A stretch of DNA of 35,149 nucleotides from Nanobdellota archaeon. GTDB lineage: Archaea; Nanobdellota; Nanobdellia; SCGC-AAA011-G17; UBA489. Both the position numbers and the translations under genes were made by a program. Within the stretch, counting starts at the first letter, position 1; every line of letters begins with the position of its first letter. Under the pieces are notes generated by a model, which had not been told where the DNA came from, made no database searches, and saw only the letters and a list, made by a program, of their open reading frames with translations. This document shows positions 14,173 through 34,933 of this stretch, in pieces. Location: the NCBI GenBank assembly GCA_038045925.1, contig JBBSXE010000052.1, forward strand, positions 1-35,149. Reading direction: 5' to 3'.

Positions 14173-14218
14173 TTTAATCACTTTCGAGTTGTATCATGAC
14201 AGTTTGGGGGATATTGGT

Positions 14219-17200
14219 ATGCGTGTAAGAGCTTTGTTTTTACTAATAGGAAGCCTCTTTCTCCTCTTCGCAGGACTTGTTTTTTCCGCGCACCTCGCAA
14301 GCGCACAAGCAGTGATCAATGAAGTGCTCTATGCGGCGCCAGCTCCTCAAAAAGAAAATGAGCTCATCGAGCTTTTTCTGTTTGACCCTAATCTCAATAT
14401 CTCGAACTACACTCTTAAAATCGGAAACACTTTAGAAACATTGACTCCGGATGTTCTTGTATCATCCCCCTTTGTGTTGATCATCGCGGATACAAGCAAC
14501 ATTACTGCAGCAAACGCATCCATTTATCGTGTTAAAGGCGCGTTAGGCAACACTGGCATGAGTTCAACAACAGTCATTCAACTTATTTCAGATACAGGTA
14601 TACCTATTGATCTCTTGGACTTGAGTTTTTTTGCTCCAACGAAAACAAATTATTCTTTAGAACGATTTAATCCTAACAACTCCGCGTTTGCAGAAAGCCT
14701 TATTCAGGGAGGAACGCCGGGCTACCAAAATAGCGTCGCGGGAAATATTCCACCAATATTGAATCCTATCGGCGATCGAACACTTCTCGAAACACAATTC
14801 TTGACGATTCAACTGAATGCTTCAGATCCTGATAACGATCCTCTTCTGTTTGATACAAATGCAGCCGGAGTTCTTCCATCGCCATTTGCGTTTGATATAA
14901 ACACAGGTCTTTTCAGTTGGACACCAACCATTACAGACGCAGGAAATTATAGCATTACCTTTAATGTGACTGATGGCATTGATTGGGATTCGGAAACCAT
15001 AACCATTACTGTTCTCAACCTCAACAGAGCACCGTCGTTTTCTCCTTTAGGAAAGCAAAGCATCTTGGAAGATACAAATTTAACGATCAATCTCTCGCAG
15101 TACGCAACTGATCCTGATGGCGAGGCTCTTGCGTTTTATGCACTTTCTATAGATAATATTACCTTGGCTATTAATCAAACAACAAGCATTGCAACCCTTA
15201 TTCCTGACTCTAATTTTTTTGGCAGTCGTTCCGTCATTTTCATCGCGCAAGATCCTTTTTTTGCAACAGCAAGCAGCGTTTTATTTTTAAGCGTGACTTC
15301 TGTCAATGATATTCCGGAAATTCGCTCAACACCGAACTTGACCGTGCAGCAAGATAGTTTGTATGCGTACAACATGATCCTCTTTGATGGCGATAATGAT
15401 CCTTTAATCACGTCATTAGCAGTTGCGCCAGCAGGCATGGTTCTTTCTAACGCGGGAAATATTACTTGGACTCCGAACAGTTCGCAAGTTGCTCCAACGC
15501 CTGTCAGTATTGTCGTGGTCGATACAGCAAATGCTTCCGTCATGCAAAATTTTACGATTACGGTCTTGAATAAAAACGACGCTCCAAAAATCAATTCTAC
15601 GCCTGTCACCACAGCGACACAAGATACTCCGTATGTTTACCAAGTCACTGCGCACGATCCTGATCTCTCTTTTGGAGATACACTCATCTTTATCTTGAAG
15701 CAGGCGCCGCAATTTATGGCTATTGCTCCAACAACCGGCATTATTGCATGGGTTCCTCAATTTAATCAAGTAGGCCAACATCCTATCATTGTTGAAGTGC
15801 GTGACGCTGCTGGACTTACTGACTTACAAAGTTTCACGATTCAAGTAGCGAATGTCAATGATCCGCCAACACAACCAACATTGATCAGCCCTTTCAATGG
15901 CGCGCTGCTCCGGGACCCAACAGTTCTTTTACAGTGGAATCCTTCAACAGATCCTGATAACGATTCCGTCAGCTATTATGTTGTGACTGGAGAGCTCATT
16001 AATCAAGGACTGAACGCGACAAACGTTACGGTTATCCAAACAACAAATCTTCAACACACCATTACACTTGAAGACAATAAAACCTATGGATGGGGCATTA
16101 TCGCAACCGATGGTGTATTAAATGCGTCGAGCAATCTCTCTGTGTTCTTCACGAGTTTCTTTAATCCGCCAACGATTCAAGTTCTTGCTCCAAATACGTT
16201 GACTCCGAGTGTCCAGGAGAATGCAACGCTTCTCTTTGCTGTGAACGTCACTGACCCTGATGGAGACCCTGTTGTCAGCATTGCCTGGTATCTTGATACG
16301 CAACTACAAACCACCAGCAGTTCTTTTACCTATGCACCGACATTCGGCGACAGCGGCATACATAATGTGACCGTTGTTGCAACAGACAACACGAGCAGAA
16401 GCAGCTTTGTTTTCTTCGCTGTTACCGTTCTCGACACAAATAGAGCTCCAGATCTTGATCCTATTTCAAACCAATCTACGACACAGGGAATTCCTTTGAA
16501 GACCTCCATAACCGCATCAGATCTTGATCTTCCTTTTGGAGACCAATTGACGTACACGACAAATAATCCTCGATTCACTGTTACGAAGAACTCAGCAACA
16601 CAGGCAGACTTTTCTTTCACGCCAACAAACAACGAGGTTGGAACACAGCAAGTTATTGTTACGGTCACTGATACCGCAGGCGCAACAGATACAGAATCGT
16701 TCTGGCTCACTGTCGCAAACATCAATGATCCTCCAACCATCACCTCATCACCGCTGACGAGCGCAGTCATCAATATACCGTATATGTACGACCTCAAAGC
16801 AACTGATCCTGATCTGCAATTTGGAGACGCCTTAACATTTACATTTGTCACGGCACCACCTACTATGGTTCTCACAAAAATTGATACCGTTACGGGAAGA
16901 ATCATGTGGACTCCGAACGCATCTGAATTTGGCCAACACCAAGTGCTTGTAAAAGTGTCTGACAACGCAAACGCAACCGTTACGCAGCAATATCAAATTC
17001 AAGTGGCACAAGTCGGAAACGGCACGTTAGTCATTCTTGATCAGTTTTCCGCAACAAAGCCGACATTCGGGGATGATAACCAGCAAGCAAGCAATCCACG
17101 CAGTGATGAATCCAGTGAGTTCGATATTTTTGACGCCACTACTATTCGCATCCAAAATGCAGGCTCTTCAACGCTTTCAAATTTCACTCTTTCCGTCGCT

Positions 17201-18631
17201 CCATTGAGCGGTTTTTCGCTGAGTGACTTGAATATCTCTCTCCAGAGCACACCGACAGTTCTCGCGAAAGGGGCATCAGCGACAATCTCTCTTAAAGCGC
17301 GAATTCCCGAAACATTAGACGCCGTTGATCAAAATGATGATGCCGTTGCGCTTCCGGTTGCAGACATCACTGTTGAAGCACAAGATACCATTGGCGCGCC
17401 AATTCGGACAACGTTCCGCGCATTTATGCAGCGAGAAAATCAATTAGACCTCACAGACACAACTCTTTTTGTGAATGATAAGAGTAGCAAAAACGTTGAC
17501 GATAAAGACGATATCAAGGACATCAAACCCAAGGATCGTTTTGAATTGGAGATTACTGCGGAAAATACCTATGATCAGTCAACAAATCTTGACATGAAAG
17601 ATGTAGGAGTACGCATCGATTGCGACGACCAGAATGATTTTGATTTCGATGATAAAACAGAAGATATCGGCGATATCGGCACAGAAGATGAAGAAACGAC
17701 AACCTTCACATTTGCTGTTGAGGACGACGCGGCAGACAGTGACACAAAATGCACGCTTGTTATTGAGGGAGATGATGAAAACAGAGCACGGCATGCAGAA
17801 TCTCTCGAATTTACCCTCAGCGTTCAGCGAGAAAGCCACGATCTCCAGATTGAAGGGCTCGACGCCACACCCAGCAGCATACTCTGTGAAACGCAGAACA
17901 TCAACATTAGAGCAGACATTCGTAATCTTGGAAAAACAGATGAAAGCGATGCTGTTGTTGAGATTATCAGCAAAGATCTCAGCTATCAGCTACGAACAAA
18001 TTCATTTGAGCTGGATGAAGACAATGTTCAAGATGTGAATTTCCTTATTCCTGTTCCACCATCATTAACCACGGGAGAAAAAGCAATACAGATTAAAACA
18101 TTCTATGACAATACCAAAGAAAGCAACAGTGAAACTATCTCTGTCGATAATCAGTGTGGTGCGCGGGCGACAATTCCGACGCGACAGCAACGAGGAGCAG
18201 CAGATGAAGATGTGGTTATCACTCTCGGACAATCTTCATTGGACGCGGCGCAAGGAAGCACTGTCAGTATTCCTGTGAAGGTCGCAAACACAGGTTCAGC
18301 AACAAAAGAATTTATAATCGCGTTCACTAATATTGAGGAATTTGCAGAGCCATCGCCAACGAAAAAAATTCTGCTTAAGCCTGGACAAACATCTACTCTT
18401 TACATGAACTTGAAGATCAAGCCGACCGCGCCTGTGAAAAAACAAAGCGCGACAATTACGGTGGCAGCTGATGGAAAATCTCTTGCCGCAGACACGATCG
18501 CGCTTGAAGTTACAGGAAAAAATCAAGGTGATGGCGCAGTACGAACAACCTTATTCTGGATTATTATTAATCTCTTACTTGTGATTATTGTCCTGTTCTT
18601 GATTGATAAATTCTTTATCCGAAAATACTGA
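14219..18631 (+). CDS. Giant cell-surface protein: signal peptide, lamin-tail domain (LTD), about 8 cadherin/He_PIG/PKD-like Ig repeats, acidic beta-sandwich plus CARDB-like module, C-terminal TM anchor
   Basis: MRVRALFLLIGSLFLLFAGLVFSAHLASAQ is the signal peptide. AVINEVLY...NELIELF...LERFNP...GTPGYQN fits the LTD pattern. Repeats are separated by cadherin-like linkers N(D/R)(A/P/I)P (NRAP, NDIP, NDAP, NDPP) and contain DPD...GD motifs. QRESHDLQIEGLDATPSS...IRNLGKTDE is CARDB-like. The C-terminus is LFWIIINLLLVIIVLFLIDKFFIRKY. The track start 14189 is TTG, so the ATG at 14219 is preferred. Confidence 0.9.
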   Translation: MRVRALFLLIGSLFLLFAGLVFSAHLASAQAVINEVLYAAPAPQKENELIELFLFDPNLNISNYTLKIGNTLETLTPDVLVSSPFVLIIADTSNITAANASIYRVKGALGNTGMSSTTVIQLISDTGIPIDLLDLSFFAPTKTNYSLERFNPNNSAFAESLIQGGTPGYQNSVAGNIPPILNPIGDRTLLETQFLTIQLNASDPDNDPLLFDTNAAGVLPSPFAFDINTGLFSWTPTITDAGNYSITFNVTDGIDWDSETITITVLNLNRAPSFSPLGKQSILEDTNLTINLSQYATDPDGEALAFYALSIDNITLAINQTTSIATLIPDSNFFGSRSVIFIAQDPFFATASSVLFLSVTSVNDIPEIRSTPNLTVQQDSLYAYNMILFDGDNDPLITSLAVAPAGMVLSNAGNITWTPNSSQVAPTPVSIVVVDTANASVMQNFTITVLNKNDAPKINSTPVTTATQDTPYVYQVTAHDPDLSFGDTLIFILKQAPQFMAIAPTTGIIAWVPQFNQVGQHPIIVEVRDAAGLTDLQSFTIQVANVNDPPTQPTLISPFNGALLRDPTVLLQWNPSTDPDNDSVSYYVVTGELINQGLNATNVTVIQTTNLQHTITLEDNKTYGWGIIATDGVLNASSNLSVFFTSFFNPPTIQVLAPNTLTPSVQENATLLFAVNVTDPDGDPVVSIAWYLDTQLQTTSSSFTYAPTFGDSGIHNVTVVATDNTSRSSFVFFAVTVLDTNRAPDLDPISNQSTTQGIPLKTSITASDLDLPFGDQLTYTTNNPRFTVTKNSATQADFSFTPTNNEVGTQQVIVTVTDTAGATDTESFWLTVANINDPPTITSSPLTSAVINIPYMYDLKATDPDLQFGDALTFTFVTAPPTMVLTKIDTVTGRIMWTPNASEFGQHQVLVKVSDNANATVTQQYQIQVAQVGNGTLVILDQFSATKPTFGDDNQQASNPRSDESSEFDIFDATTIRIQNAGSSTLSNFTLSVAPLSGFSLSDLNISLQSTPTVLAKGASATISLKARIPETLDAVDQNDDAVALPVADITVEAQDTIGAPIRTTFRAFMQRENQLDLTDTTLFVNDKSSKNVDDKDDIKDIKPKDRFELEITAENTYDQSTNLDMKDVGVRIDCDDQNDFDFDDKTEDIGDIGTEDEETTTFTFAVEDDAADSDTKCTLVIEGDDENRARHAESLEFTLSVQRESHDLQIEGLDATPSSILCETQNINIRADIRNLGKTDESDAVVEIISKDLSYQLRTNSFELDEDNVQDVNFLIPVPPSLTTGEKAIQIKTFYDNTKESNSETISVDNQCGARATIPTRQQRGAADEDVVITLGQSSLDAAQGSTVSIPVKVANTGSATKEFIIAFTNIEEFAEPSPTKKILLKPGQTSTLYMNLKIKPTAPVKKQSATITVAADGKSLAADTIALEVTGKNQGDGAVRTTLFWIIINLLLVIIVLFLIDKFFIRKY
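17637..17698 (+). repeat. Copy 1 of a 62-nt tract identical between two surface-protein paralogs
   Basis: ATTTTGATTTCGATGATAAAACAGAAGATATCGGCGATATCGGCACAGAAGATGAAGAAACG, encoding FDFDDKTEDIGDIGTEDEET. It contains the tandem GATATCGGC x2. Confidence 0.9.
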
Positions 18632-26119: not shown

Positions 26120-26192
26120 AGCGCCGGGCAGGATTTGAACCTGCGAATGACCGCTCTGCAGGCGATAGTGTTAACCGCTTCACCACCGGCGC
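26120..26192 (-). tRNA. tRNA-Cys (GCA)
   Basis: The reverse complement GCGCCGGTGGTGAAGCGGTTAACACTATCGCCTGCAGAGCGGTCATTCGCAGGTTCAAATCCTGCCCGGCGCT folds as a cloverleaf. It has a 7-bp acceptor stem, anticodon loop CTGCAGA, T arm GCAGG-TTCAAAT-CCTGC and discriminator U73 (a CysRS identity element). There is no encoded CCA. TTATATAAA lies about 28 nt upstream. Confidence 0.9.
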
Positions 26193-26218: not shown

Positions 26219-26938
26219 TTATATAAGTTTCTCCCTTTCTAAAAGAGAAATACGAGGTATATAATAGCCTAATTTTTTCCATAGTAAATATTTCGTGAGA
26301 CTATTTCTATTGCTAAACCCTATTTCCCTCATCCATTTTTCTAATTTATGCTCGCCGCTGAGATAGATTTTAAAATCCCCATACTTCGTTTTCATAATTT
26401 TTGCCTCGAATTTATTTTTATTTAATAGATCAAATACCTGATAAGCGAGTAACTGGCTCGATGTTCGAAGCTCTATTCGCGGATATGTAGGATAATTATT
26501 TTCTTTGCTTTTCGAGAAATAAAGAGAGCCATCAGATTCGAAAATACCTCTAAGAACATGTTTTGCAATTTCCCAGGAAATAGTGAATCTTTTTGGTATC
26601 TTAACAATAAAGGTTTTATTTCCATAATCGAGATCAGCATCTTCCACAAGGAAAGAAATAAATGCTTTGCTATAAATAAGCAATTCCAAACCAAAGCCTT
26701 TTTTATGTTTTCTCGATTGTATTACTGGTTCTTTTCCAGTCAATTTGAAAATAATATTTTTTAATCTCATAAAATACTCGATGTCTTGAGAAACATCTCC
26801 AACAACTATAAGCCTATAAAACTTATCTTGATAGCGATAAAGGATATTTCCATCTCCTATGATAACCCCAACAAGTTCTGCAAATTCAGGCATGAATGCG
26901 TAAGCAAGCCTCTTAATTTCATGTTGCGAAAACTGCAT
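26219..26938 (-). CDS. Free-standing double-motif LAGLIDADG homing-endonuclease-like protein
   Basis: There are two LAGLIDADG-type motifs, FAELVGVIIGDGNI and VLRGIFESDGSLYF, about 100 aa apart. TATTTAAAGA lies about 27 nt upstream of the ATG at 26938. The stop codon lies inside the TATA box of tRNA-Cys. Confidence 0.8.
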   Translation of the reverse strand: MQFSQHEIKRLAYAFMPEFAELVGVIIGDGNILYRYQDKFYRLIVVGDVSQDIEYFMRLKNIIFKLTGKEPVIQSRKHKKGFGLELLIYSKAFISFLVEDADLDYGNKTFIVKIPKRFTISWEIAKHVLRGIFESDGSLYFSKSKENNYPTYPRIELRTSSQLLAYQVFDLLNKNKFEAKIMKTKYGDFKIYLSGEHKLEKWMREIGFSNRNSLTKYLLWKKLGYYIPRISLLEREKLI

Positions 26939-27089: not shown

Positions 27090-27914
27090 CTATTCCAGCA
27101 AATGTTCTTTGTGCACAAACAAGCTCCTAACAAACCAATACATCGCATAGAGCTCAAACGCAAAAGGAAAGTAGCCTAAATATCCCAGAATCGGCATTTC
27201 AAAAATTTTAAAGAATCCGACAAACGGCACATCATAGATCCATTTCGGCACAGCCCAATAATTCCAGAACTCCCAGAAAAAACCAAGAATAATGCCTGCA
27301 AGCAGCAACGTCAAAGGCAATGTGAGATCTTTGCGCTTTATATGACCGAGAATGCTTGGCTGATGGTGGAGATAATTGATCGGATCCAAGAGCAAAAAGA
27401 AGCTCAACCAAACAAGAGGAAATGCGAATTTCGGCAGCAAAAGTGGAAGAAAAAAACAAACAAGGCCGAATCCCATCACAACATGTAAAAAATGTTTTGT
27501 TATCTTATGTTTTTTGTGCAATGTTTTATGCTCAAACAAATGCACTGTTCTGATAAGCTCAACAGTCTCAAAGAATGCTGGGAGCACCGTCGCAAAAGAA
27601 ATCGTTCCCATCATTCCCGCGAATCGTCCAAGATCATCTAATCCTTGATATTGCCAGTTATTTGTTGCAATATTCAAAAACTCAAACACCCGCCAAAACA
27701 GCGCAGAAATGACAATCATGCCAAGAAACTGAGAAAACCGATTGCTGATGAGTGAATTGCCTCGTAACTTATACACGAGTGCGTCAACGACCAAGATATA
27801 ACCCATCCATACCAGAGGAAAATACCAGCTTGCAAACGGCTCGATTTTGAAAAAGAAATTCAGTTCAACAAGCACAATAAGGAGTATTCCCAACAGCCCA
27901 TATTTTCGAAACAT
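27090..27914 (-). CDS. Polytopic integral membrane protein, unknown family
   Basis: About 8 hydrophobic helices. The motif W-x2-F-E-F-x5-7-W-x-Y occurs twice (FWRVFEFLNIATNNWQY and FWEFWNYWAVPKWIY). The ATG at 27914 has AATTTATATAC centred about 27 nt upstream. Confidence 0.7.
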   Translation of the reverse strand: MFRKYGLLGILLIVLVELNFFFKIEPFASWYFPLVWMGYILVVDALVYKLRGNSLISNRFSQFLGMIVISALFWRVFEFLNIATNNWQYQGLDDLGRFAGMMGTISFATVLPAFFETVELIRTVHLFEHKTLHKKHKITKHFLHVVMGFGLVCFFLPLLLPKFAFPLVWLSFFLLLDPINYLHHQPSILGHIKRKDLTLPLTLLLAGIILGFFWEFWNYWAVPKWIYDVPFVGFFKIFEMPILGYLGYFPFAFELYAMYWFVRSLFVHKEHLLE

Positions 27915-27949
27915 GATTATTTGACACAAGAAGAAGTATATAAATTATT

Positions 27950-28405
27950 TTACTTTCCTGCTCTTATGCGTAAGAGGCAGTAGATGAGCAACGGCCCGGC
28001 AATAAGCAGACTCCAACCAAGAATAACGACGAAGTTTATGCCAAACAATGCAATTGAACTAAATGGAATGGTATACGCCCAATCACCAGCAGTCGTTCCT
28101 GGTATCTCCCAGAGCAGTATTCCTGTAACCATGGCCATCACAAACGCGAATATATTGTTTTTTAGCACTGTGAAAAAAAAGACATATGTTTCTCGAAAAG
28201 ACATTAAAATAAATGGGTAGAATAGTGGTGCCGTACTAATCAGCGTGCTCGTCGACAAATAAGGGTAGCTCCGGAAATCAAGCAAGGCATTGCCGATAAG
28301 TTCAATAAGCGAACCATAGATTGCTAATAAAGCATACAGAGAGAAAAAAGCCCGTACTTTCGTTTCAAAAGCAAATCCAAGGTTGTTTTCTTTTTTCGCA
28401 ACCAC
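27950..28405 (-). CDS. Integral membrane protein related to the halves of the downstream 27090..27914 protein
   Basis: About 4 TM helices. LLWEIPGTTAGDWAYTIPF repeats the W-E...W-x-Y-x-x-P-F motif of the neighbouring gene. Confidence 0.6.
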   Translation of the reverse strand: MVAKKENNLGFAFETKVRAFFSLYALLAIYGSLIELIGNALLDFRSYPYLSTSTLISTAPLFYPFILMSFRETYVFFFTVLKNNIFAFVMAMVTGILLWEIPGTTAGDWAYTIPFSSIALFGINFVVILGWSLLIAGPLLIYCLLRIRAGK

Positions 28406-28584
28406 GAAAGCATATCAAAAAATAGCCACACACCAATAACTGCAGGATAATACCAATAATGATTTTTTATAACTACAAATGAACAGATACAATCATCAGA
28501 AGAAAACATACGACAATAGAAAATGTTCGCATAAGACCCACCTACGTAATTCTGAGCGACATTGTGTTGAGAATATATCTCTTG

Positions 28585-29169
28585 CTAGCCTGTAAATAAT
28601 CCCTTAAACCAACTAATAATCTTTGAGAAGAATCCGCTTACTTCGCTGCCGATGTTTTTGTTTCCGTCTGCTCCACTCTTATCGCTTGTTTCGCCAGTTT
28701 TTGCCTCATCATCATCTGTTTTCTTCGTTGGAGGCGCAGGACCATTTTTCCCTTCGAATGCTGGATCAACACGGACGACTAATGCTGATTTCTCAAGCAA
28801 GAGTTGCGCAGTCGATTTTTCTCTGCCATCTTTGACAATGATCAACGCAGTTTTTGTTTTGTCATCCCATGCGTCTTCAGCAGTGCAGGTTTTCTTTTCC
28901 TTTCCTGTTGCTGGATCTGTTGCCGTGGTGCAATTGCGCTTCGGATAGAAGCGGAGCTTATAACTTTTTAGAACAGCTTCTGCATCATCTTTCGTTACAG
29001 TATCAACAAATGTGGCAGAAACAAATCCCTGCAAGAGTGCCGGATCATCGAATGCCGTTAGCATTTTCGCTATTTTTTCCGGAGACTGCTGGGCGGAGAT
29101 TGATATTGGTGAGAGGAGCAGAACACTCAGTAAGAATACAGTAATAATTCCATATAGACTCTTTTTCAT
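28585..29169 (-). CDS. Secreted hypothetical protein
   Basis: Signal peptide MKKSLYGIITVFLLSVLLLSPISISAQQ. The C-terminal region is charged and low in complexity. CTATTTAAAGAT (reverse complement of 29193-29204) lies about 29 nt upstream. Confidence 0.65.
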   Translation of the reverse strand: MKKSLYGIITVFLLSVLLLSPISISAQQSPEKIAKMLTAFDDPALLQGFVSATFVDTVTKDDAEAVLKSYKLRFYPKRNCTTATDPATGKEKKTCTAEDAWDDKTKTALIIVKDGREKSTAQLLLEKSALVVRVDPAFEGKNGPAPPTKKTDDDEAKTGETSDKSGADGNKNIGSEVSGFFSKIISWFKGLFTG

Positions 29170-29234: not shown

Positions 29235-29321
29235 CGGGCCCGAAGAGATTTGAACTCTCGACCCCTAGCTTGCTTCATGATTTAGAAGGCTAGTGCTCTA
29301 TCCAGGCTGAGCTACGGACCC
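29235..29321 (-). tRNA. tRNA-Arg (UCU) with a 12-nt intron at the canonical 37/38 position
   Basis: The reverse complement is GGGTCCGTAGCTCAGCCTGGATAGAGCACTAGCCTTCTA[AATCATGAAGCA]AGCTAGGGGTCGAGAGTTCAAATCTCTTCGGGCCCG. The cloverleaf closes only if about 12 nt (plus-strand 29271-29282) are removed. CTTC of the anticodon loop pairs with GAAG of the intron, giving a relaxed bulge-helix-bulge. TTAAATAA lies about 27 nt upstream. Confidence 0.85.
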
Positions 29322-29462
29322 ATGGCATTTTTCCCTTCTATTTGCTTATTTAAGCTTTTGCAGAAAACGTTTGATTATCTAAAGAGCGTTCTTTAACGTC
29401 TAAATGAAGCGCATCTATTGGTTACAACAAGTTTTAAATAATCTCTTTATTCTTTGCAAAGG

Positions 29463-32400
29463 ATGGATTTCAAATCGCTTGAAAAAAAATGGCAGCAGCG
29501 CTGGAAACAAGCAAAGGTTTTTACTGCTTCAGCGGCTGGTAAAAAAAAGTGGTTTAATTTAGAGATGTTCCCGTACCCCTCAAGCACGGGGTTGCATATG
29601 GGACACGCCTTTAACTATGTTCTCGGCGACATTTACGCGCGCTTCAAACGGATGCATGGCTTCTCCGTTCTCTATCCGATGGGCTACGACGCCTTTGGCC
29701 TGCCTGCAGAAAATGCTGCCATCAAGGCAAACAGCCATCCTAAACCATACACTGAACAAGCGATCAAGAATTTTATTGTGCAGCAACAAGCGCTCGGTTT
29801 AAGCTATGACTGGGAACGGATAATCACCACCTGCGATCCAGATTATTATCGCTGGAATCAGCTCCTCTTCCTTCATTTTTTTAAAAAAGGCCTGGTCTAT
29901 AAAAAAAAAGCAAGCGTCAACTGGTGCTCGCAATGCACAACGGTGTTGGCAAATGAGCAAGTGCATGGAGGAGCATGCTGGCGCCATCAAGAGACTCTCG
30001 TTGAAATCAAGCAATTAGAACAATGGTTTATCAAAACAACTGTGTATGCAGACGAGCTGTTGGACACCATTGATGATTTAGACTGGCCAGAACGGATTAA
30101 GCAGATGCAGAAAAACTGGATTGGTAAAAGTGAAGGTGCCGAGATTGTGTTCGACGTTGCGACTGAGTCTAATTTCGTTCTTCTTCATGGTTATACAGGC
30201 AGCGCGGAAAAAAATTTCTTTCCTTGGCTTAAAAAAGAACTCGAACGCAGTGGTCATGCAGTTTTCGCTCCAAATTTACCAAATACCAGCAATCCAAATA
30301 TTTCAGAACAAGTAGGCTACGTACTAAAAAACTACACGTTCGACGAACATACTGTTCTTCTTGGCCATAGCTTAGGAAGTGTTGTTGCGTTGAAAATTGT
30401 AGAGCAATTGAAAAACCCCATAAAAAAATTAGTTCTCGCGGCAGGATTTGCGCAGCCAAAATTCAAAGATAAAGAACGACCGTTTGAAACAACGTTTGAC
30501 TGGCAGTTCGATTTCAACAACATAAAAAAGAATGTGAAACATATCGTAATCTTGCGAGATATAAAAGATTCAGCGGTTCCTGCAGAAAAAGCCGACTATC
30601 TCAAAGAGAAGATTGGCGGCGAGATTATTGATTTCGTTGCGGAAAGAAGTCATATTTGCGGAGAACAGGAGCCAGAAGTGCTAAACACTTGCTTGGAGCG
30701 ATGGCATGTTTTTACCACGCGCCCAGATACATTATTCGGTGTCACATTTTTAGTTGTCGCAGCACAGCATCCAGAACTCATGTCCTTAGTGACTCCACAG
30801 CAAAAAAATGCAGTAAACTCCTTTCTGAAAAAGCTCAACACAACAAAGCAGGAAGATCTCGATAAAATGGAAAAAGAAGGTGTCTTTATCGGATCCTATG
30901 CAATTCATCCACTCACAGAAGAAAAAATTCCGATTTATACAGGAAATTTTGTCGTTGTGGACTATGGTTCTGGCATAGTGATGGCAGTACCTGCGCATGA
31001 TCAGCGTGATTTTGAGTTCGCGAAAAAATATAGCATTCCGATAAAGATTGTGATCCAACCAAAAGAAAAAAAGCTTGATGTGAACTATTTGCAAGAAGCA
31101 TATACGCACGAGGGCATATTGGTCAACTCACGTCAATTCAATGATCTTCCAACCGCGGCAGCAAAGGAAAAGATTGTACACTTCCTTACGCAACAAAAAA
31201 AAGGAAAAAAAACAACACAATACAAACTCCGTGATTGGCTCGTGTCTCGTCAGCGCTATTGGGGAACGCCCATTCCGTTCATTCATTGCAGCCATTGCGG
31301 CCTTGTTCCTGTGCCTGAAAAAGATCTTCCCGTCCTGCTTCCGGAAAATGTTACATTTGGCAAAGGCAATCCTCTGGAGACAAATAAAGAGTTTGTTCAC
31401 ACGCATTGTCCAACCTGTAAAAAGCCAGCAAAACGAGAAACAGATACCATGGACACGTTTTTTGATTCATCGTGGTATTTTCTCCGCTTTACAGATCCAA
31501 CGAATGGAAAACAACCTTTTGAAAAAAAGAAAGCTGATTCTTGGATGCCTGTTGATTTCTATGTTGGCGGAGCAGAACATGCCTGTGGTCATTTAATTTA
31601 TGCGCGCTTCTTTACCAAAGTTTTGCGCGATCTTGGTCTTGTCACGTGCGATGAACCCTTCAAAAAACTTTTCAACCAAGGGATGCTGCACGGAGAAGAT
31701 GGTCATGTGATGTCAAAATCCCGCGGTAATGTCATTAATCCGTTAGAGGTGATTGAACAATATGGTGCAGATACGCTACGGATGTTTTTAGTTTCAGTTG
31801 CTTCTGCAGACAAAGATATGATCTGGAGTACTGAAGGCATTGTGAGCGTGCATAAAGTGCTGCAAAAACTTATTACACTCTTTGCAACGATGACTATAAC
31901 CACGTCAAGCAAGCGACTCGAAAGCAAACTTCATCAAACCATCAAAGAAGTAACACAGTATACTGAAGCGATTAAGTATAATCTTGCCGTGATCAGCTTG
32001 CGCACCTTTATCGATGATCTTGGAAAGGAAAAAACAATTGCGAAGCATGACGCAGCAGCGTTTTTGAAACTCCTACATCCTTTTTGTCCGCACATCACTG
32101 AAGAACTATGGGAAAAGCTGAAAAATAAACAAGTGATAACATTAGAATCGTGGCCAGTACATCAAGAGAAAAAAATAAATCAAAAAATTGATGCAGCAGA
32201 GAAATTTATTCAGGCAACAACTGCAGACATCGCGAATATCCTCAATCTCATCAAGATCAAACCACAAACAATTACGTTGTTCATTGCAGAATCATGGAAA
32301 TATCCGCTCTTCAAAAAACTCCACACCGAAAAAACCAGAGATTTCTCAGCACTCATGAAAAAATTTGCAGACAAAGAAAAAGGTCAGGACATTGCAAAAA

Positions 32401-32600
32401 TTGTTCAGCAATTCATGAAGGGCGCATTAAAAACAGATATTGTGATCTCACTAGAAGAGGAAGCAGATGCTCTCAAAGAACAGAAATTGTTATTAGAAAA
32501 GCAGTTTGGCGCAAAAATAGAAATAATACATGCAGAAACGAGCAAAGAGCAAAAAGCAAAGCAAGCTATTCCTGGAAAGGTTGCAATCATGGTTTCATAA
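29463..32600 (+). CDS. leuS: Leucyl-tRNA synthetase, bacterial type, carrying an in-frame alpha/beta-hydrolase insertion
   Basis: FPYPSSTGLHMGH is the HIGH motif, PMGYDAFGLPAENAA and NWIGKSEG are LeuRS motifs, TTRPDTLFG and VPAHDQRDFEFAKKY belong to the CP1 editing domain, RDWLVSRQRYWGTPIP is present, VMSKSRGN is the KMSKS motif, and the C-terminus is IPGKVAIMV. The ATG at 29463 has TTTTAAATAA about 28 nt upstream. Confidence 0.95.
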   Translation: MDFKSLEKKWQQRWKQAKVFTASAAGKKKWFNLEMFPYPSSTGLHMGHAFNYVLGDIYARFKRMHGFSVLYPMGYDAFGLPAENAAIKANSHPKPYTEQAIKNFIVQQQALGLSYDWERIITTCDPDYYRWNQLLFLHFFKKGLVYKKKASVNWCSQCTTVLANEQVHGGACWRHQETLVEIKQLEQWFIKTTVYADELLDTIDDLDWPERIKQMQKNWIGKSEGAEIVFDVATESNFVLLHGYTGSAEKNFFPWLKKELERSGHAVFAPNLPNTSNPNISEQVGYVLKNYTFDEHTVLLGHSLGSVVALKIVEQLKNPIKKLVLAAGFAQPKFKDKERPFETTFDWQFDFNNIKKNVKHIVILRDIKDSAVPAEKADYLKEKIGGEIIDFVAERSHICGEQEPEVLNTCLERWHVFTTRPDTLFGVTFLVVAAQHPELMSLVTPQQKNAVNSFLKKLNTTKQEDLDKMEKEGVFIGSYAIHPLTEEKIPIYTGNFVVVDYGSGIVMAVPAHDQRDFEFAKKYSIPIKIVIQPKEKKLDVNYLQEAYTHEGILVNSRQFNDLPTAAAKEKIVHFLTQQKKGKKTTQYKLRDWLVSRQRYWGTPIPFIHCSHCGLVPVPEKDLPVLLPENVTFGKGNPLETNKEFVHTHCPTCKKPAKRETDTMDTFFDSSWYFLRFTDPTNGKQPFEKKKADSWMPVDFYVGGAEHACGHLIYARFFTKVLRDLGLVTCDEPFKKLFNQGMLHGEDGHVMSKSRGNVINPLEVIEQYGADTLRMFLVSVASADKDMIWSTEGIVSVHKVLQKLITLFATMTITTSSKRLESKLHQTIKEVTQYTEAIKYNLAVISLRTFIDDLGKEKTIAKHDAAAFLKLLHPFCPHITEELWEKLKNKQVITLESWPVHQEKKINQKIDAAEKFIQATTADIANILNLIKIKPQTITLFIAESWKYPLFKKLHTEKTRDFSALMKKFADKEKGQDIAKIVQQFMKGALKTDIVISLEEEADALKEQKLLLEKQFGAKIEIIHAETSKEQKAKQAIPGKVAIMVS

Positions 32601-32620: not shown

Positions 32621-33073
32621 CTATCTTTCTTTCAATTGTTTTCTTTTGCGTTGTTCAGTTTCCTTAAGATAATTATCAGGCGTAGCAACAGATTCTCCAG
32701 ATTCCATCTCAAGGTTTCTTCTCGCATCTCCTGCGATAGTTCCGCCATTTTTTGCAGCATCTTTATTCTCGGAAAATCCTTGCGCATTTTTGCTTCGCAC
32801 TATTTTTGTTGTTGACGCTTCACCGAGCATCGTAAAGATCAATTCCATATAGCCCATATGATCGCGAAGATTCTCTTTTTTGAGTCCCTTGAAATCTTTA
32901 TATTCCTCTACTGTCTTGTTGAATGTGGCTTTTGAAATTTCATTCGTGAGGATTGCAAATTCTTTGTTTTCGTCTACTCCTCTTTCTTTCCATTCGTCAG
33001 TTAATTCTTGTCGGACAGCAATACCTCTGATGCGTTTTTCGATCCACTCATCAGAATATCCTTTTTCATCCAA
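32621..33073 (-). CDS. DinD / phage-antirepressor C-terminal-region-like protein lacking the Bro-N domain
   Basis: WIEKRIRGIAVRQELTDEWKERGV...FAILTNEISKATF...LRDHMGYMELIF...GGTIAGDARRNLE matches the C-terminal half of DNA-damage-inducible protein D-like proteins, from memory. The start overlaps the upstream gene by 8 nt. Confidence 0.55.
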   Translation of the reverse strand: MDEKGYSDEWIEKRIRGIAVRQELTDEWKERGVDENKEFAILTNEISKATFNKTVEEYKDFKGLKKENLRDHMGYMELIFTMLGEASTTKIVRSKNAQGFSENKDAAKNGGTIAGDARRNLEMESGESVATPDNYLKETEQRKRKQLKER

Positions 33074-33764
33074 ATAATCCGCTTCTCGGACCCCATACCA
33101 TGATCCATGTTGTTGCGAAAATAAGAACGCAGGTGAGAATAATAGTTAAGAAGTGATCTTCTTGTATTTGCCGTTCAGTCTCTTTCATTTCATAATAGAT
33201 TAAGTAGTTAAGGGAAATTAAGATCAGAGTGCAGACAAAGAAGATAATTCCTGTTGCAATGCTCAAATGATCGTTGAGAAGCATCACTGCAGTCATTGCG
33301 CCCATCACTCCGCCCATGAATCCAGCCATAATACCTTCCATAAATCCCATAACACCGCAACATTTTCCAATCCAGATGCCAAAAACTATGCCGACAATCA
33401 TGCCGAAGACTGATCCATAAAACATCCCGTTCGTTGCGCCGACATAAAATCCGGAAAGAAAACCAGCAACCATGCCAGTAGTCATACCGAGCATCATACC
33501 AGTCATACAGGGAAATTCTTTATAGGCGCGAACTTGCCGTATCGTCGGAACAAGCAAAGCATAACTGACGGCCGCAAAAAACAAAAAGAATCCTTTTTTC
33601 GCCATGAAATCTTCTTCAAAGCGAAAGGAGAAAAAATAGAGAAGCACAAGAATCGCTGCTGAGGCCAGCAAGGAGTAAAGCATTGTTTTGATTAACTCAC
33701 CTTCAACACGATTACCGTTTAATTCTGCGCAAAATTGTTTGAAGCTCATTGGAGTTTGCATCAT
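33066..33764 (-). CDS. Polytopic membrane protein with Gly/Met/Cys-rich helices
   Basis: About 6 TM segments, including FPCMTGMMLGMTTGMVAGFLSGFYVG and GIWIGKCCGVMGFMEGIMAGFMGGVMGAMTAVM. No family recognised, and the start is uncertain (M1, M2 or M6). Confidence 0.6.
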   Translation of the reverse strand: MMQTPMSFKQFCAELNGNRVEGELIKTMLYSLLASAAILVLLYFFSFRFEEDFMAKKGFFLFFAAVSYALLVPTIRQVRAYKEFPCMTGMMLGMTTGMVAGFLSGFYVGATNGMFYGSVFGMIVGIVFGIWIGKCCGVMGFMEGIMAGFMGGVMGAMTAVMLLNDHLSIATGIIFFVCTLILISLNYLIYYEMKETERQIQEDHFLTIILTCVLIFATTWIMVWGPRSGLFG

Positions 33765-33844
33765 TTAGTTCTTCTTTTTATAGTTTTCGATCTCTTTTGC
33801 TCCGGGAAAAAATATTTAAAGAAGAATGTTGTATACTTGGCTTC

Positions 33845-34933
33845 ATGGTCCTTAAAGAAATTCTTGAACAGCAATATCTGCAGAACACGTATGTGCATTC
33901 AGTACTTCTTGTTCTGTTTTTTTATGTTCTTGCGCAATTCGTATCTTTTGCTCTCAGAAGTTACATGAAAAATGTTACGTTCAAAACAAAAACACGCGTT
34001 GATGATCTCATTCTGAAGCGCATTCATCGACCTCTTTTTTATCTTTTGATCATTCTCGGGTTAAAAATAGGCGTGACGCGGCTGATTACATCAATACAGT
34101 TGTCAACTATTGCAGATCATCTATTCGATATCAGTATTGCCTTTTTTATTATGTATGGTCTCTATGCTATTGTAAACATTATTTTAACAGAATGGGGAGA
34201 TCGATTCGCGAAAAAAACAGAGACAACGATTGATCGGGATTTACTGCCCTTATTTCATAAATCCGTGAAGATTGTTTTTATTCTCTTAGCAGTTTTTTTC
34301 GTGCTTCATGAATTGAGGATAGACATTACAGGGTTACTGGCAGGAGTTGGAATCGCGGGTTTAGTTCTCGGACTCGCGCTGAAAGATAGTCTGGCAAATA
34401 TTTTTGGAGGCATTTCAATTATTTTAGATAAAGCCTTTCGGGTTGACGATGTAATTAAGACCTCTGATGGAGATATGGGAACAGTTATTGATATCGGGCT
34501 TCGCAGTACACGAGTAAAAACATGGGATAATGAGCTGCTGATTATTCCGAATGGACAATTGGCAAACGCAAAAATACAAAACTTTAAGCAGCCTGATGAA
34601 AGCACGCGCGCAGTTATTCCCTTCGGGGTCACGTATGGCACATCCATCGATAAAGTAAAGGGTGTTGTCGCAAAGGCGCTGATAACGCTGCCGAACATAC
34701 TTACAACAGGAAATAAAAAGCCAAAAGTGTACTTCATTGGTTTTGGTGACAGCGCGCTCAATCTGCAAGCAACGTTCTGGGTAGATCAATACATGAAAAA
34801 ATTTTCAACAAAGGAAAAAGCAGCATGCTTGATGTATGAGGCGCTGAACAAACACAAGATTGACATTGCCTTCCCAACGAGAACCATTTATGTGCACAAT
34901 GCAACAACAGAGAAAACGAGAAAGAAACAATGA
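33845..34933 (+). CDS. MscS-family mechanosensitive channel
   Basis: GIAGLVLGLALKDSLANIFGGISIILDKAFRVDDVI...GTVIDIGLRSTRVKTWDNELLIIPNGQLANAKIQNF is the MscS TM3 plus beta-domain signature. The ATG at 33845 has AATATTTAAAG about 28 nt upstream; the track start 33749 is TTG. Confidence 0.9.
   Translation: MVLKEILEQQYLQNTYVHSVLLVLFFYVLAQFVSFALRSYMKNVTFKTKTRVDDLILKRIHRPLFYLLIILGLKIGVTRLITSIQLSTIADHLFDISIAFFIMYGLYAIVNIILTEWGDRFAKKTETTIDRDLLPLFHKSVKIVFILLAVFFVLHELRIDITGLLAGVGIAGLVLGLALKDSLANIFGGISIILDKAFRVDDVIKTSDGDMGTVIDIGLRSTRVKTWDNELLIIPNGQLANAKIQNFKQPDESTRAVIPFGVTYGTSIDKVKGVVAKALITLPNILTTGNKKPKVYFIGFGDSALNLQATFWVDQYMKKFSTKEKAACLMYEALNKHKIDIAFPTRTIYVHNATTEKTRKKQ

Follow-up and report, generated by a model that had tools for sequence, protein, structure and literature searches.

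In this study, we ask what a complete serine hydrolase does inside a leucyl-tRNA synthetase (LeuRS). The question is raised by the leuS gene of a 35,149-nucleotide stretch of DNA from a Nanobdellota archaeon (contig JBBSXE010000052.1, assembly GCA_038045925.1; hereafter the window, at its full length), in which the synthetase harbors an alpha/beta hydrolase at the entrance of its CP1 editing domain. This arrangement recurs in many other LeuRS, and close free-standing relatives of the hydrolase are encoded next to leuS genes. The explanation that we favor as a whole, with a probability of roughly 0.5, is that of an active hydrolase that is functionally coupled to LeuRS and auxiliary to CP1.

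A complete hydrolase nested in the CP1 hairpin

The leuS open reading frame (ORF) lies on the + strand at 29454..32600 and encodes 1048 residues from a TTG start. An identical protein (P0002) has been deposited from a Nanoarchaeota metagenome-assembled genome as one coding sequence, which begins at the ATG of residue 4, 3 residues downstream of the ORF start, and which bears the automatic name 'alpha/beta fold hydrolase'. The whole protein scores 906.2 bits against the bacterial LeuRS model TIGR00396 (leuS_bact; curated cutoff 548.4), and when it is split at the insert, this model halts at position 233 and picks up at 241. Upstream of the insert stands the N-terminal half of the Rossmann catalytic domain (29454..30158; TIGR00396 positions 2-233, 352 bits), which holds the ZN1 CxxC motifs and the HMGH signature (residues 48-51, nucleotides 29595-29606), and which ends on the outgoing beta-strand of the CP1 entrance hairpin (residues 225-236), a strand in the AlphaFold2 (AF2) model. 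Downstream, the CP1 editing domain (30699..31223; PF13603 positions 22-184, 211 bits) opens with the return strand of the hairpin (residues 416-421) and carries the CP1 motifs TTRPDT (residues 421-426, nucleotides 30714-30731) and GSGIVMAVPAHDQRD (residues 505-519, including AHDQRD at residues 514-519, nucleotides 30993-31010). The second half of the catalytic domain comes next (31224..31853), with the CSHC and CPTC zinc knuckles (residues 612-615 and 652-655) and VMSKS (residues 752-756, nucleotides 31707-31721), and the protein ends with an anticodon-binding region and an archaeal-type C-terminal domain (31854..32600), all of these features being on the + strand. Both class I signatures, HMGH and VMSKS, are found, as are TTRPDT and AHDQRD, in agreement with the preliminary description of this DNA, made from its letters alone, to which the flanking synthetic and editing motifs had looked intact.

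Between the two strands of the hairpin, at 30159..30701 on the + strand, lies the nested hydrolase (residues 236-416, with a folded core at about 240-413). Insert-less relatives have 4-6 residues at this point, for instance 'EINFKINNKNWPIFTTRPDT', and the window LeuRS has about 177 residues in excess of them. The N-terminal junction reads FDV followed by ATESNF and the C-terminal one CLER followed by WHVFTT, the ORF remains open through both, and the insert ends five residues ahead of TTRPDT. The early assignment of this segment to the YdeN/RBBP9-type family, in frame at the CP1 entrance, is borne out both by profile searches and by structural models. PF06821 (Ser_hydrolase, gathering cutoff 22) matches the full protein with 38.8 bits and the insert alone with 42.9 bits, PF00561 matches residues 236-416 with 38-44 bits, and a sequence search of the PDB with the domain retrieves YdeN (1uxo, E=6e-15) and RBBP9 (E=1e-8). 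Modeled alone, the domain reaches a predicted local distance difference test score (pLDDT) of 94.5 and a predicted template-modeling score (pTM) of 0.92; Foldseek aligns this model with 1uxo, 7oex, 2qs9 and 9fcr at template-modeling (TM) scores of 0.82-0.85 and root-mean-square deviations of 2.5-3.0 Å, generic alpha/beta hydrolases ranking far below. None of the known editing folds that we considered (CP1, INS/YbaK, AlaX/N2, B3/B4, DTD) shows homology to the insert, which matches alpha/beta-hydrolase families only.

The full-length AF2 model, built on a 60-sequence alignment, is likewise confident (pLDDT 90.8, pTM 0.80) and places a compact beta-alpha-beta domain between strands 225-236 and 416-421, at the tip of the first CP1 beta-hairpin, with Ser306 at the elbow between strand 300-305 and helix 307-318. 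Its best Foldseek matches are the bacterial LeuRS 1h3n, 2bte, 5on2 and 4aq7 (E of about 1e-76 to 1e-68), with target-normalised TM scores of 0.73-0.81 to solved bacterial LeuRS. The 50 matches listed are without exception LeuRS chains, none longer than 876 residues, and their query-normalised TM scores do not exceed 0.66, as expected if the solved LeuRS chains are without the extra domain. The insert is a complete YdeN/RBBP9-type serine hydrolase nested within LeuRS.

The residues needed for catalysis are all present in this domain, and we followed them across 68 aligned nested copies and 94 free-standing relatives. The 'HG' oxyanion-hole motif after strand 1, His245-Gly246 (30186..30191, +), has its histidine in 66/68 and its glycine in 61/68 nested copies, and the motif is retained in 93 of the 94 free-standing relatives. 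The nucleophile elbow G304-H305-S306-L307-G308 (30363..30377, +; Ser306 codon AGC at 30369-30371) has an invariant serine (68/68), together with H305 in 66 copies and G308 in 67. The catalytic acid, Asp372 (GAT, 30567..30569, +), is D in 64/68 copies and E in the other 4/68, and the catalytic base, His400 (CAT, 30651..30653, +), is H in 67/68. These are the three residues that had been picked out at the outset as the likely triad, with the serine in a G-H-S-x-G motif; Ser306, Asp372 and His400 align with the PF06821 family positions in the canonical order, with the GxSxG elbow. In the free-standing relatives, the positions of Ser306, His400, Asp372, His305, Gly308 and His245 are 100% conserved. 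The triad and the elbow are kept even though the nested copies share as little as 18-25% identity, and this conservation, along with the models, suggests that the nested hydrolase is apparently catalytically competent, with its triad under purifying selection. The window LeuRS is thereby predicted to carry three active sites, namely the synthetic one, CP1 and the hydrolase.

Two further residues distinguish the LeuRS-linked clade. Trp350 (30501..30503, +) is found in 52/68 nested copies, and this position is K, E, R or H rather than W in other free-standing PF06821 proteins. Glu406 (30669..30671, +), six residues past the catalytic histidine, is found in 58/68 nested copies, and this position is F, not E, in 69/94 of the other free-standing copies. 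W350 and Glu406 are candidate specificity residues of the clade, and Glu406 might in particular serve as an anchor for the alpha-amine of the substrate.

The host synthetase is itself composite, judging from its profile matches. The LeuRS body and CP1 fit the bacterial model with 352 and 508 bits, versus 118 and 92 bits for the best archaeal model. Conversely, its last 248 residues (801-1048) match archaeal models to the final position (120.6 bits; NF008957 positions 697-945 of 946), whereas leuS_bact gives 46.9 bits and reaches only position 780 of 843. All of the features by which we recognise a bacterial-type LeuRS are found here, with the exception of the bacterial-type C-terminal domain, and at the level of these models the host LeuRS is a chimera with a bacterial-type catalytic body and CP1 and an archaeal-type tail. 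This tail resembles that of an archaeal-type LeuRS on another of the contigs studied (L014).

Recurrence in LeuRS, beside leuS and in other proteins

The preliminary description had treated the insert as an oddity of one LeuRS. This view has to be given up, since the pairing of LeuRS with this hydrolase is widespread and recurrent in DPANN archaea and in bacteria of the candidate phyla radiation (CPR). In a collection of 5.8 billion proteins, 69 of the 120 nearest LeuRS, query included, hold an insert of 162-192 residues at the same site, and the carriers come from NCBI, JGI, ENA and Logan assemblies of Woesearchaeota, Pacearchaeota and other Nanoarchaeota. The insert is also found at 13 loci of GTDB species representatives, including the CPR Levyibacteriota and Paceibacterota; these loci were retrieved from contigs with a domain profile made of 3 sequences, which finds close relatives only, so this taxonomic survey is a lower bound. 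One of the hydrolase-bearing LeuRS stands on an 835 kb contig labelled 'uncultured Gammaproteobacteria bacterium' (CAYRKM010000001.1, L002) and groups with the Levyibacteriota; this label is probably wrong.

Such recurrence bears directly on the idea that the insert might be an artefact or a selfish element, be it an assembly chimera, an intein, a recent mobile insertion or a decayed, non-catalytic spacer. This idea has on its side the unusual architecture and one LeuRS (P0186) with an in-frame transposase domain at the same site. An assembly chimera or a chance event is ruled out by the presence of the insert in dozens of independent assemblies. An intein is ruled out as well, as already suspected from the letters: there is no Cys or Ser at the N-terminal junction, no H-N-[CST] at the C-terminal one and no match to the Hint or intein Pfam families. 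Searches of the insert junctions for flanking direct or inverted repeats, terminal repeats and a target-site duplication found none, and the GC content of the insert (0.401, or 0.365 at third codon positions) matches that of the remainder of the gene (0.416 and 0.409), which rules out a recent mobile insertion. As the triad is invariant and the structure models are confident, we give this whole family of explanations hardly any credence.

It was also conceivable that the hydrolase had taken over from CP1. The CP1 and synthetic-site motifs are invariant in all 69 insert-bearing LeuRS among the nearest relatives, they are essentially so in 51 insert-less LeuRS (one of which has Tyr at D425), and among 41 more divergent LeuRS that carry the hydrolase, 39 have intact CP1 motifs. 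A replacement of CP1 by the hydrolase is thus ruled out, and the hydrolase comes on top of a complete LeuRS rather than standing in for CP1. Of the functional options put forward at the outset, 'replacement proofreading' finds no support, whereas an extra hydrolytic activity coupled to LeuRS is strongly, if indirectly, supported by gene neighborhood and repeated fusion. A degenerate version of the threonine-rich CP1 motif (DSVPQT, TTWPHT and TTAHDT for TTRPDT) was observed in only three hydrolase-linked LeuRS (L015, 5578-7998; P0140; P0157), which, by these motifs, may have lost CP1 editing and retained the hydrolase.

The history of the insert appears to be one of repeated exchange. Its presence is patchy on a tree of 131 LeuRS cores, where Fitch parsimony requires at least 13 changes. 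Among DPANN pairs, the identities of core and insert are uncorrelated (r = 0.01), so that at 60-65% core identity the insert identity spans 18% to 74%; CPR LeuRS have inserts that are 48-64% identical to that of the query and cores that are 36-49% identical, the reverse of the DPANN pattern. On the domain tree, the inserts of this hairpin (site 1) are spread over at least three distinct PF06821 lineages, mixed with free copies adjacent to leuS and with copies from a second LeuRS site, described below. The simplest reading of these sequence relationships would be that the hydrolase was captured or replaced repeatedly at one permissive hairpin, and that it switched between the state of a neighboring gene and that of a nested domain.

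The free-standing homologs lead to the same partner. There are proteins of about 180 residues that share 40-60% identity with the insert, and most of the closest ones were found to be encoded near leuS. One begins 3 nt past the stop of an insert-less CPR-type leuS (P0159), another lies directly upstream of leuS, with 5 bases between them, in an operon syntenic with the former (P0275), and two others lie 6 nt upstream of another leuS (P0127) and 36 nt upstream of a third CPR-type leuS (P0125). The copy that is about 60% identical to the insert (P0124) stands 24 nt upstream of a DPANN-type leuS, the product of which has a core 61% and 53% identical to the query, a NUDIX domain at site 2 and a short hairpin at site 1. 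A further copy lies 1.35 kb upstream of leuS (P0131). On a Pacearchaeota contig, another one (P0130) heads a packed run of genes for the hydrolase, a second hydrolase, a YbaK-type tRNA_edit protein, Ham1 and LeuRS, the latter being of the archaeal type (NF008957, 850 bits, cutoff 677). The eighth close homolog (P0138) sits on a 3-kb contig that is uninformative on leuS linkage. In total, seven of the eight closest free-standing homologs have leuS no more than three genes away, and for five of them it is the immediate neighbor; the homologs lie on either side of leuS and next to three LeuRS lineages (bacterial-type, CPR-type and archaeal-type). The chance of an immediate adjacency is about 0.3% per case if a genome is assumed to hold roughly 600-1000 genes. 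No aminoacyl-tRNA synthetase (aaRS) is encoded near two more distant family members (32-39% identity). The operons that contain the free hydrolase (L014, 8001-12882; L015, 2959-9154; L016, 1907-7956) recurrently hold Ham1 (ITPase), IMPase and a TehB-like methyltransferase, and also Sua5/TsaC, the cysteinyl-tRNA synthetase CysRS, TatD and the YbaK-type tRNA_edit protein; several of these genes recur as terminal fusion partners of the hydrolase.

The hydrolase is not restricted to the CP1 hairpin, nor to LeuRS. A word-index search for homologs of the insert alone gave a single 105-residue fragment, and an exhaustive HMMER search of 1.84 billion cluster representatives, with the insert as query, returned 1775 relatives (E <= 1e-3), of which 49 have E <1e-30. 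LeuRS is the dominant host, accounting for about 45 of the best 150 of these 1775 domain matches. Six LeuRS carry the hydrolase at the second site, around residue 615 in query numbering, just past the CSHC zinc knuckle. The same clade is nested in frame in SecA, Kae1/TsaD, UvrA, methionyl-tRNA formyltransferase (Fmt), Der/EngA, GatA, and valyl- and alanyl-tRNA synthetases (ValRS and AlaRS) (P0151, P0154, P0185, P0207, P0209, P0250, P0152, P0199 and P0188). More distant members form end-to-end fusions with NUDIX, peptidase S51 (P0195), methyltransferase, IMPase, glyoxalase and ANT(2'') domains. Five of the eight other nested hosts (ValRS, AlaRS, Fmt, GatA and Kae1) handle tRNA or aminoacyl-tRNA, an enrichment that is statistically insecure, as the large conserved proteins of small genomes are rich in aaRS and the choice of the hosts classified is subjective. 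In genomes of the CPR/DPANN type, this hydrolase clade behaves like a promiscuous domain that nests within essential proteins.

Other domains and arrangements were observed in these LeuRS. In query-equivalent numbering, a NUDIX domain is inserted within CP1, at about 536-548, in P0011, P0012, P0020, P0092, P0098, P0101 and L022, a HAD domain at about 660, near the second zinc knuckle, in P0155, and an insert near 208 is found in P0163 and P0149; some LeuRS that combine NUDIX and hydrolase domains reach 1200-1300 residues. In the LeuRS P0186, an IS200-type Y1 transposase domain (PF01797, 52.8 bits) occupies residues 269-374 in frame, which corresponds to site 1, and the hydrolase is present at the 615 site. 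Tandem hydrolase domains are found at site 1 of LeuRS proteins of 1312 and 1169 residues, and a free-standing two-domain form has 350 residues (P0044/L006, 712-4674; P0190; P0128).

Such promiscuity invites the view that we are dealing with a housekeeping hydrolase unrelated to aminoacylation, fused into permissive loops of large essential proteins of streamlined CPR/DPANN genomes for the sake of gene economy or co-expression, or because a nested in-frame gene is hard to lose. The eight non-LeuRS hosts listed above are what would be expected in this case, as are the NUDIX, HAD and Y1 transposase domains at the LeuRS hot spots, the patchy presence, for which the LeuRS tree requires 13 or more gains or losses, the terminal fusions to unrelated enzymes and the operons of 'housecleaning' genes (Ham1, IMPase). 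This view is at odds with the placement of most of the closest free homologs within three genes of leuS, beside three LeuRS types, with the share of LeuRS among the best domain matches, and with the W350/E406 signature that the LeuRS-linked clade has of its own. On balance, we consider it unlikely, although it deserves to be kept in mind.

Candidate functions of the hydrolase

That the hydrolase works with LeuRS is strongly inferred from gene and protein sequences, because it resides in the leuS neighborhood, has been fused to LeuRS repeatedly and at more than one site, and accompanies three LeuRS lineages. To go from partnership to function, we have to consider what is known of the family. 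RBBP9 removes a single N-terminal amino acid via an acyl-enzyme on its serine, it requires a free alpha-amine, and its Glu108 anchors this amine (PMC8866121); the crystal structure 7oex shows RBBP9 with the phenylalanine that it had released. RBBP9 has also been cited (ref. 5 in PMC7730578) as an enzyme that activates valacyclovir. An aminoacyl-tRNA 3' end or an aminoacyl-adenylate would offer the same kind of group as the RBBP9 substrates, among which valacyclovir is the valyl ester of a nucleoside analogue. By this analogy, the most likely substrate of the nested hydrolase would be an alpha-aminoacyl ester, thioester or anhydride made at LeuRS.

A possible reaction can be outlined on this basis. 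The target of Ser306 would be the carbonyl of an alpha-aminoacyl group that is produced at LeuRS and has its alpha-amine free, this group being either the 3' ester of a mischarged or unwanted aminoacyl-tRNA(Leu) or a non-cognate aminoacyl-adenylate. The resulting aminoacyl-enzyme intermediate would then be hydrolysed through His400 and Asp372. In LeuRS-tRNA structures, the CCA end shuttles past the CP1 tether region. With five residues between the end of the insert and TTRPDT, the domain would sit at this tether, and the outcome would be an auxiliary, CP1-independent clearance, held close to the path of the tRNA 3' end. We regard an auxiliary clearance of aminoacyl esters or anhydrides made at LeuRS as quite possible, at somewhat less than even odds.

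Several observations weigh against the coupling of the hydrolase to LeuRS chemistry and must be set beside those that favor it. CP1 is intact in nearly all carriers, which leaves no obvious editing gap to be filled. E341, which aligns with the alpha-amine anchor Glu108 of RBBP9, is not conserved. The domain is not basic, its mean net charge being +1.2 in nested copies, and four of the five leuS-linked free copies have a net charge of -6 to -11; net charge in these two sets gives no support to nucleic-acid binding, and a neutral to acidic domain is unlikely to bind tRNA on its own. The same clade is carried by SecA, UvrA and Der, none of which has a role in tRNA biology, and this tempers a strictly tRNA-centered view. 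The same LeuRS loops accept NUDIX, HAD and IS200-type transposase domains, and these sites are perhaps just permissive. Finally, the trees are rough neighbor-joining ones without support values, and the counts of captures and changes drawn from them are indicative only.

The charge of the domain is also relevant to another proposal, in which the hydrolase would contribute to amino-acid supply. It would act as an RBBP9-like aminopeptidase or esterase, tethered to or co-expressed with LeuRS, that frees leucine or other hydrophobic residues from peptides or esters scavenged by auxotrophic symbionts. Neutral or acidic domains suit small-molecule or peptide substrates, the removal of N-terminal aminoacyl groups is the only well-characterised activity in the fold family (PMC8866121; 7oex with Phe), the distant member P0195 is fused to a peptidase S51, and the hosts ValRS and AlaRS likewise use abundant aliphatic amino acids. 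Nevertheless, free amino acids diffuse, so that nesting in LeuRS at two sites brings no evident gain; Kae1, Fmt, GatA, SecA, UvrA and Der consume no free amino acids; and the operon shared with a YbaK-type deacylase favors quality control of aminoacyl-tRNA over nutrition. We give this proposal a small chance of being right.

Two narrower proposals start from compounds that LeuRS itself produces or encounters. In the first one, the hydrolase would detoxify homocysteine thiolactone, an alpha-amino thioester that arises from the rejection of homocysteine by LeuRS and ValRS. Both of these hosts are indeed among the five homocysteine-editing aaRS (PMC5370406), and BPHL, the other human valacyclovir esterase beside RBBP9, is a highly efficient homocysteine thiolactonase (PMC4198189). 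However, BPHL comes from a different alpha/beta-hydrolase family, which makes the analogy purely chemical, no methionyl- or isoleucyl-tRNA synthetase (IleRS) hosts were seen among the best matches, and AlaRS, which is a host, is without homocysteine editing, all of which renders this proposal improbable. In the second one, the hydrolase would protect LeuRS by cleaving aminoacyl-nucleotide 'Trojan horse' inhibitors. Natural LeuRS inhibitors of this sort are known, such as TM84 from agrocin 84 (on LeuRS in PDB 3zgz), and distant members of the family are fused to the resistance-type domains ANT(2'') and glyoxalase/bleomycin-resistance; these fusions, however, sit in a distant subclade, and the non-aaRS hosts are left unexplained. 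We think it very improbable.

The reading that we prefer remains an active hydrolase coupled to LeuRS, and it can be carried one step further. The LeuRS-linked PF06821 clade might constitute an unrecognised class of proofreading factors for aminoacyl-tRNA or aminoacyl-adenylates, built on a Ser-His-Asp alpha/beta hydrolase and acting both in cis (in LeuRS, ValRS and AlaRS) and in trans (as free proteins encoded next to leuS). Some CPR/DPANN LeuRS would then have, at their third active site, a covalent route of editing that differs from all known editing domains. This step is a tentative one, and we would rather bet against it than for it. If the hydrolase does act on aminoacyl-tRNA or adenylates, it would bring a new fold and a covalent chemistry to translational quality control, and it would imply that ultra-small, host-scavenging symbionts face fidelity problems beyond those handled by CP1. 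The YdeN family of bacteria and archaea, so far largely uncharacterised, would gain a function as well. Otherwise, the evolution of the system would still be unusual, with one small hydrolase nested in frame across many essential CPR/DPANN proteins.

Genomic setting and comparison with known systems

The surroundings of leuS in the window fit an archaeal host in one respect: about 130 nt upstream of leuS, on the - strand (29235-29321), a tRNA-Arg(UCU) was found by an Rfam match and missed by ARAGORN, and it has a 12-nt intron at the canonical position 37/38. Further away, a tRNA-Cys(GCA) (26120-26192, -) adjoins a LAGLIDADG-like ORF (26219-26938, -), for which the match is weak (PF14528, 25 bits). 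The neighbors of leuS include an MscS-type channel (33749-34933), and most of the others (27090-29169 and 32621-33764) have no Pfam match. The largest ORF in the window, of 1480 residues, is at 14189-18631 (+).

The aaRS rank with the most thoroughly studied enzymes, and the folds of their editing domains form a small, closed repertoire. To a specialist, a third, triad-type active site at the CP1 hinge would come as a surprise, all the more so as it is recurrent and mirrored by leuS-adjacent genes in two domains of life. The preliminary description knew of no aaRS with an esterase fold at the hinge of its editing domain, and a full-text search of the literature, in which subscription journals were largely outside reach, found no published description of a hydrolase-bearing LeuRS or of a leuS-hydrolase gene pair. 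The databases do hold hydrolase-bearing LeuRS proteins, under automatic names only.

The closest structural counterparts are YdeN from Bacillus subtilis (1uxo) and human RBBP9 (2qs9, 7oex, 9fcr), with which the window domain has in common the minimal fold of about 180 residues, the GHSxG elbow, the Asp and the late His. These proteins are free-standing, whereas the window domain is nested in the hairpin of an aaRS, and the identity is just 21-25%; moreover, the Glu108 anchor of RBBP9 is absent as a conserved residue from the LeuRS-linked clade, which has its own W350 and E406.

In terms of organisation, the best comparison is with the editing modules of aaRS. A duality of fused and free-standing forms is typical of these modules, as seen for AlaX and the AlaRS editing domain, or for YbaK/ProX and the INS domain of prolyl-tRNA synthetase. 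The LeuRS-linked hydrolase, found both fused to aaRS (at two LeuRS sites) and as a linked free gene adjacent to leuS, is likewise a hydrolytic module on an aaRS with free homologs. It differs from CP1, AlaX and YbaK/ProX in its unrelated fold, in its predicted covalent Ser-His-Asp triad and in that it would supplement an intact CP1. To our knowledge, no established editing domain uses a covalent Ser-His-Asp triad.

The addition of an extra catalytic domain to an aaRS is an already known kind of architecture. The NCBIfam family NF040702 describes an IleRS with an N-acetyltransferase domain, which is likewise a class Ia synthetase combined with an unrelated catalytic domain. That domain is a GNAT instead of an alpha/beta hydrolase, and the hydrolase is nested at the tip of a hairpin and occurs at several sites and in several hosts. 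Inteins, for their part, are also autonomous folds that are found in frame in essential proteins, with a patchy spread and reoccupation of the same sites. In contrast to inteins, the hydrolase has neither Hint fold, nor splicing residues, nor homing endonuclease; it remains in the mature protein, and its triad is under selection.

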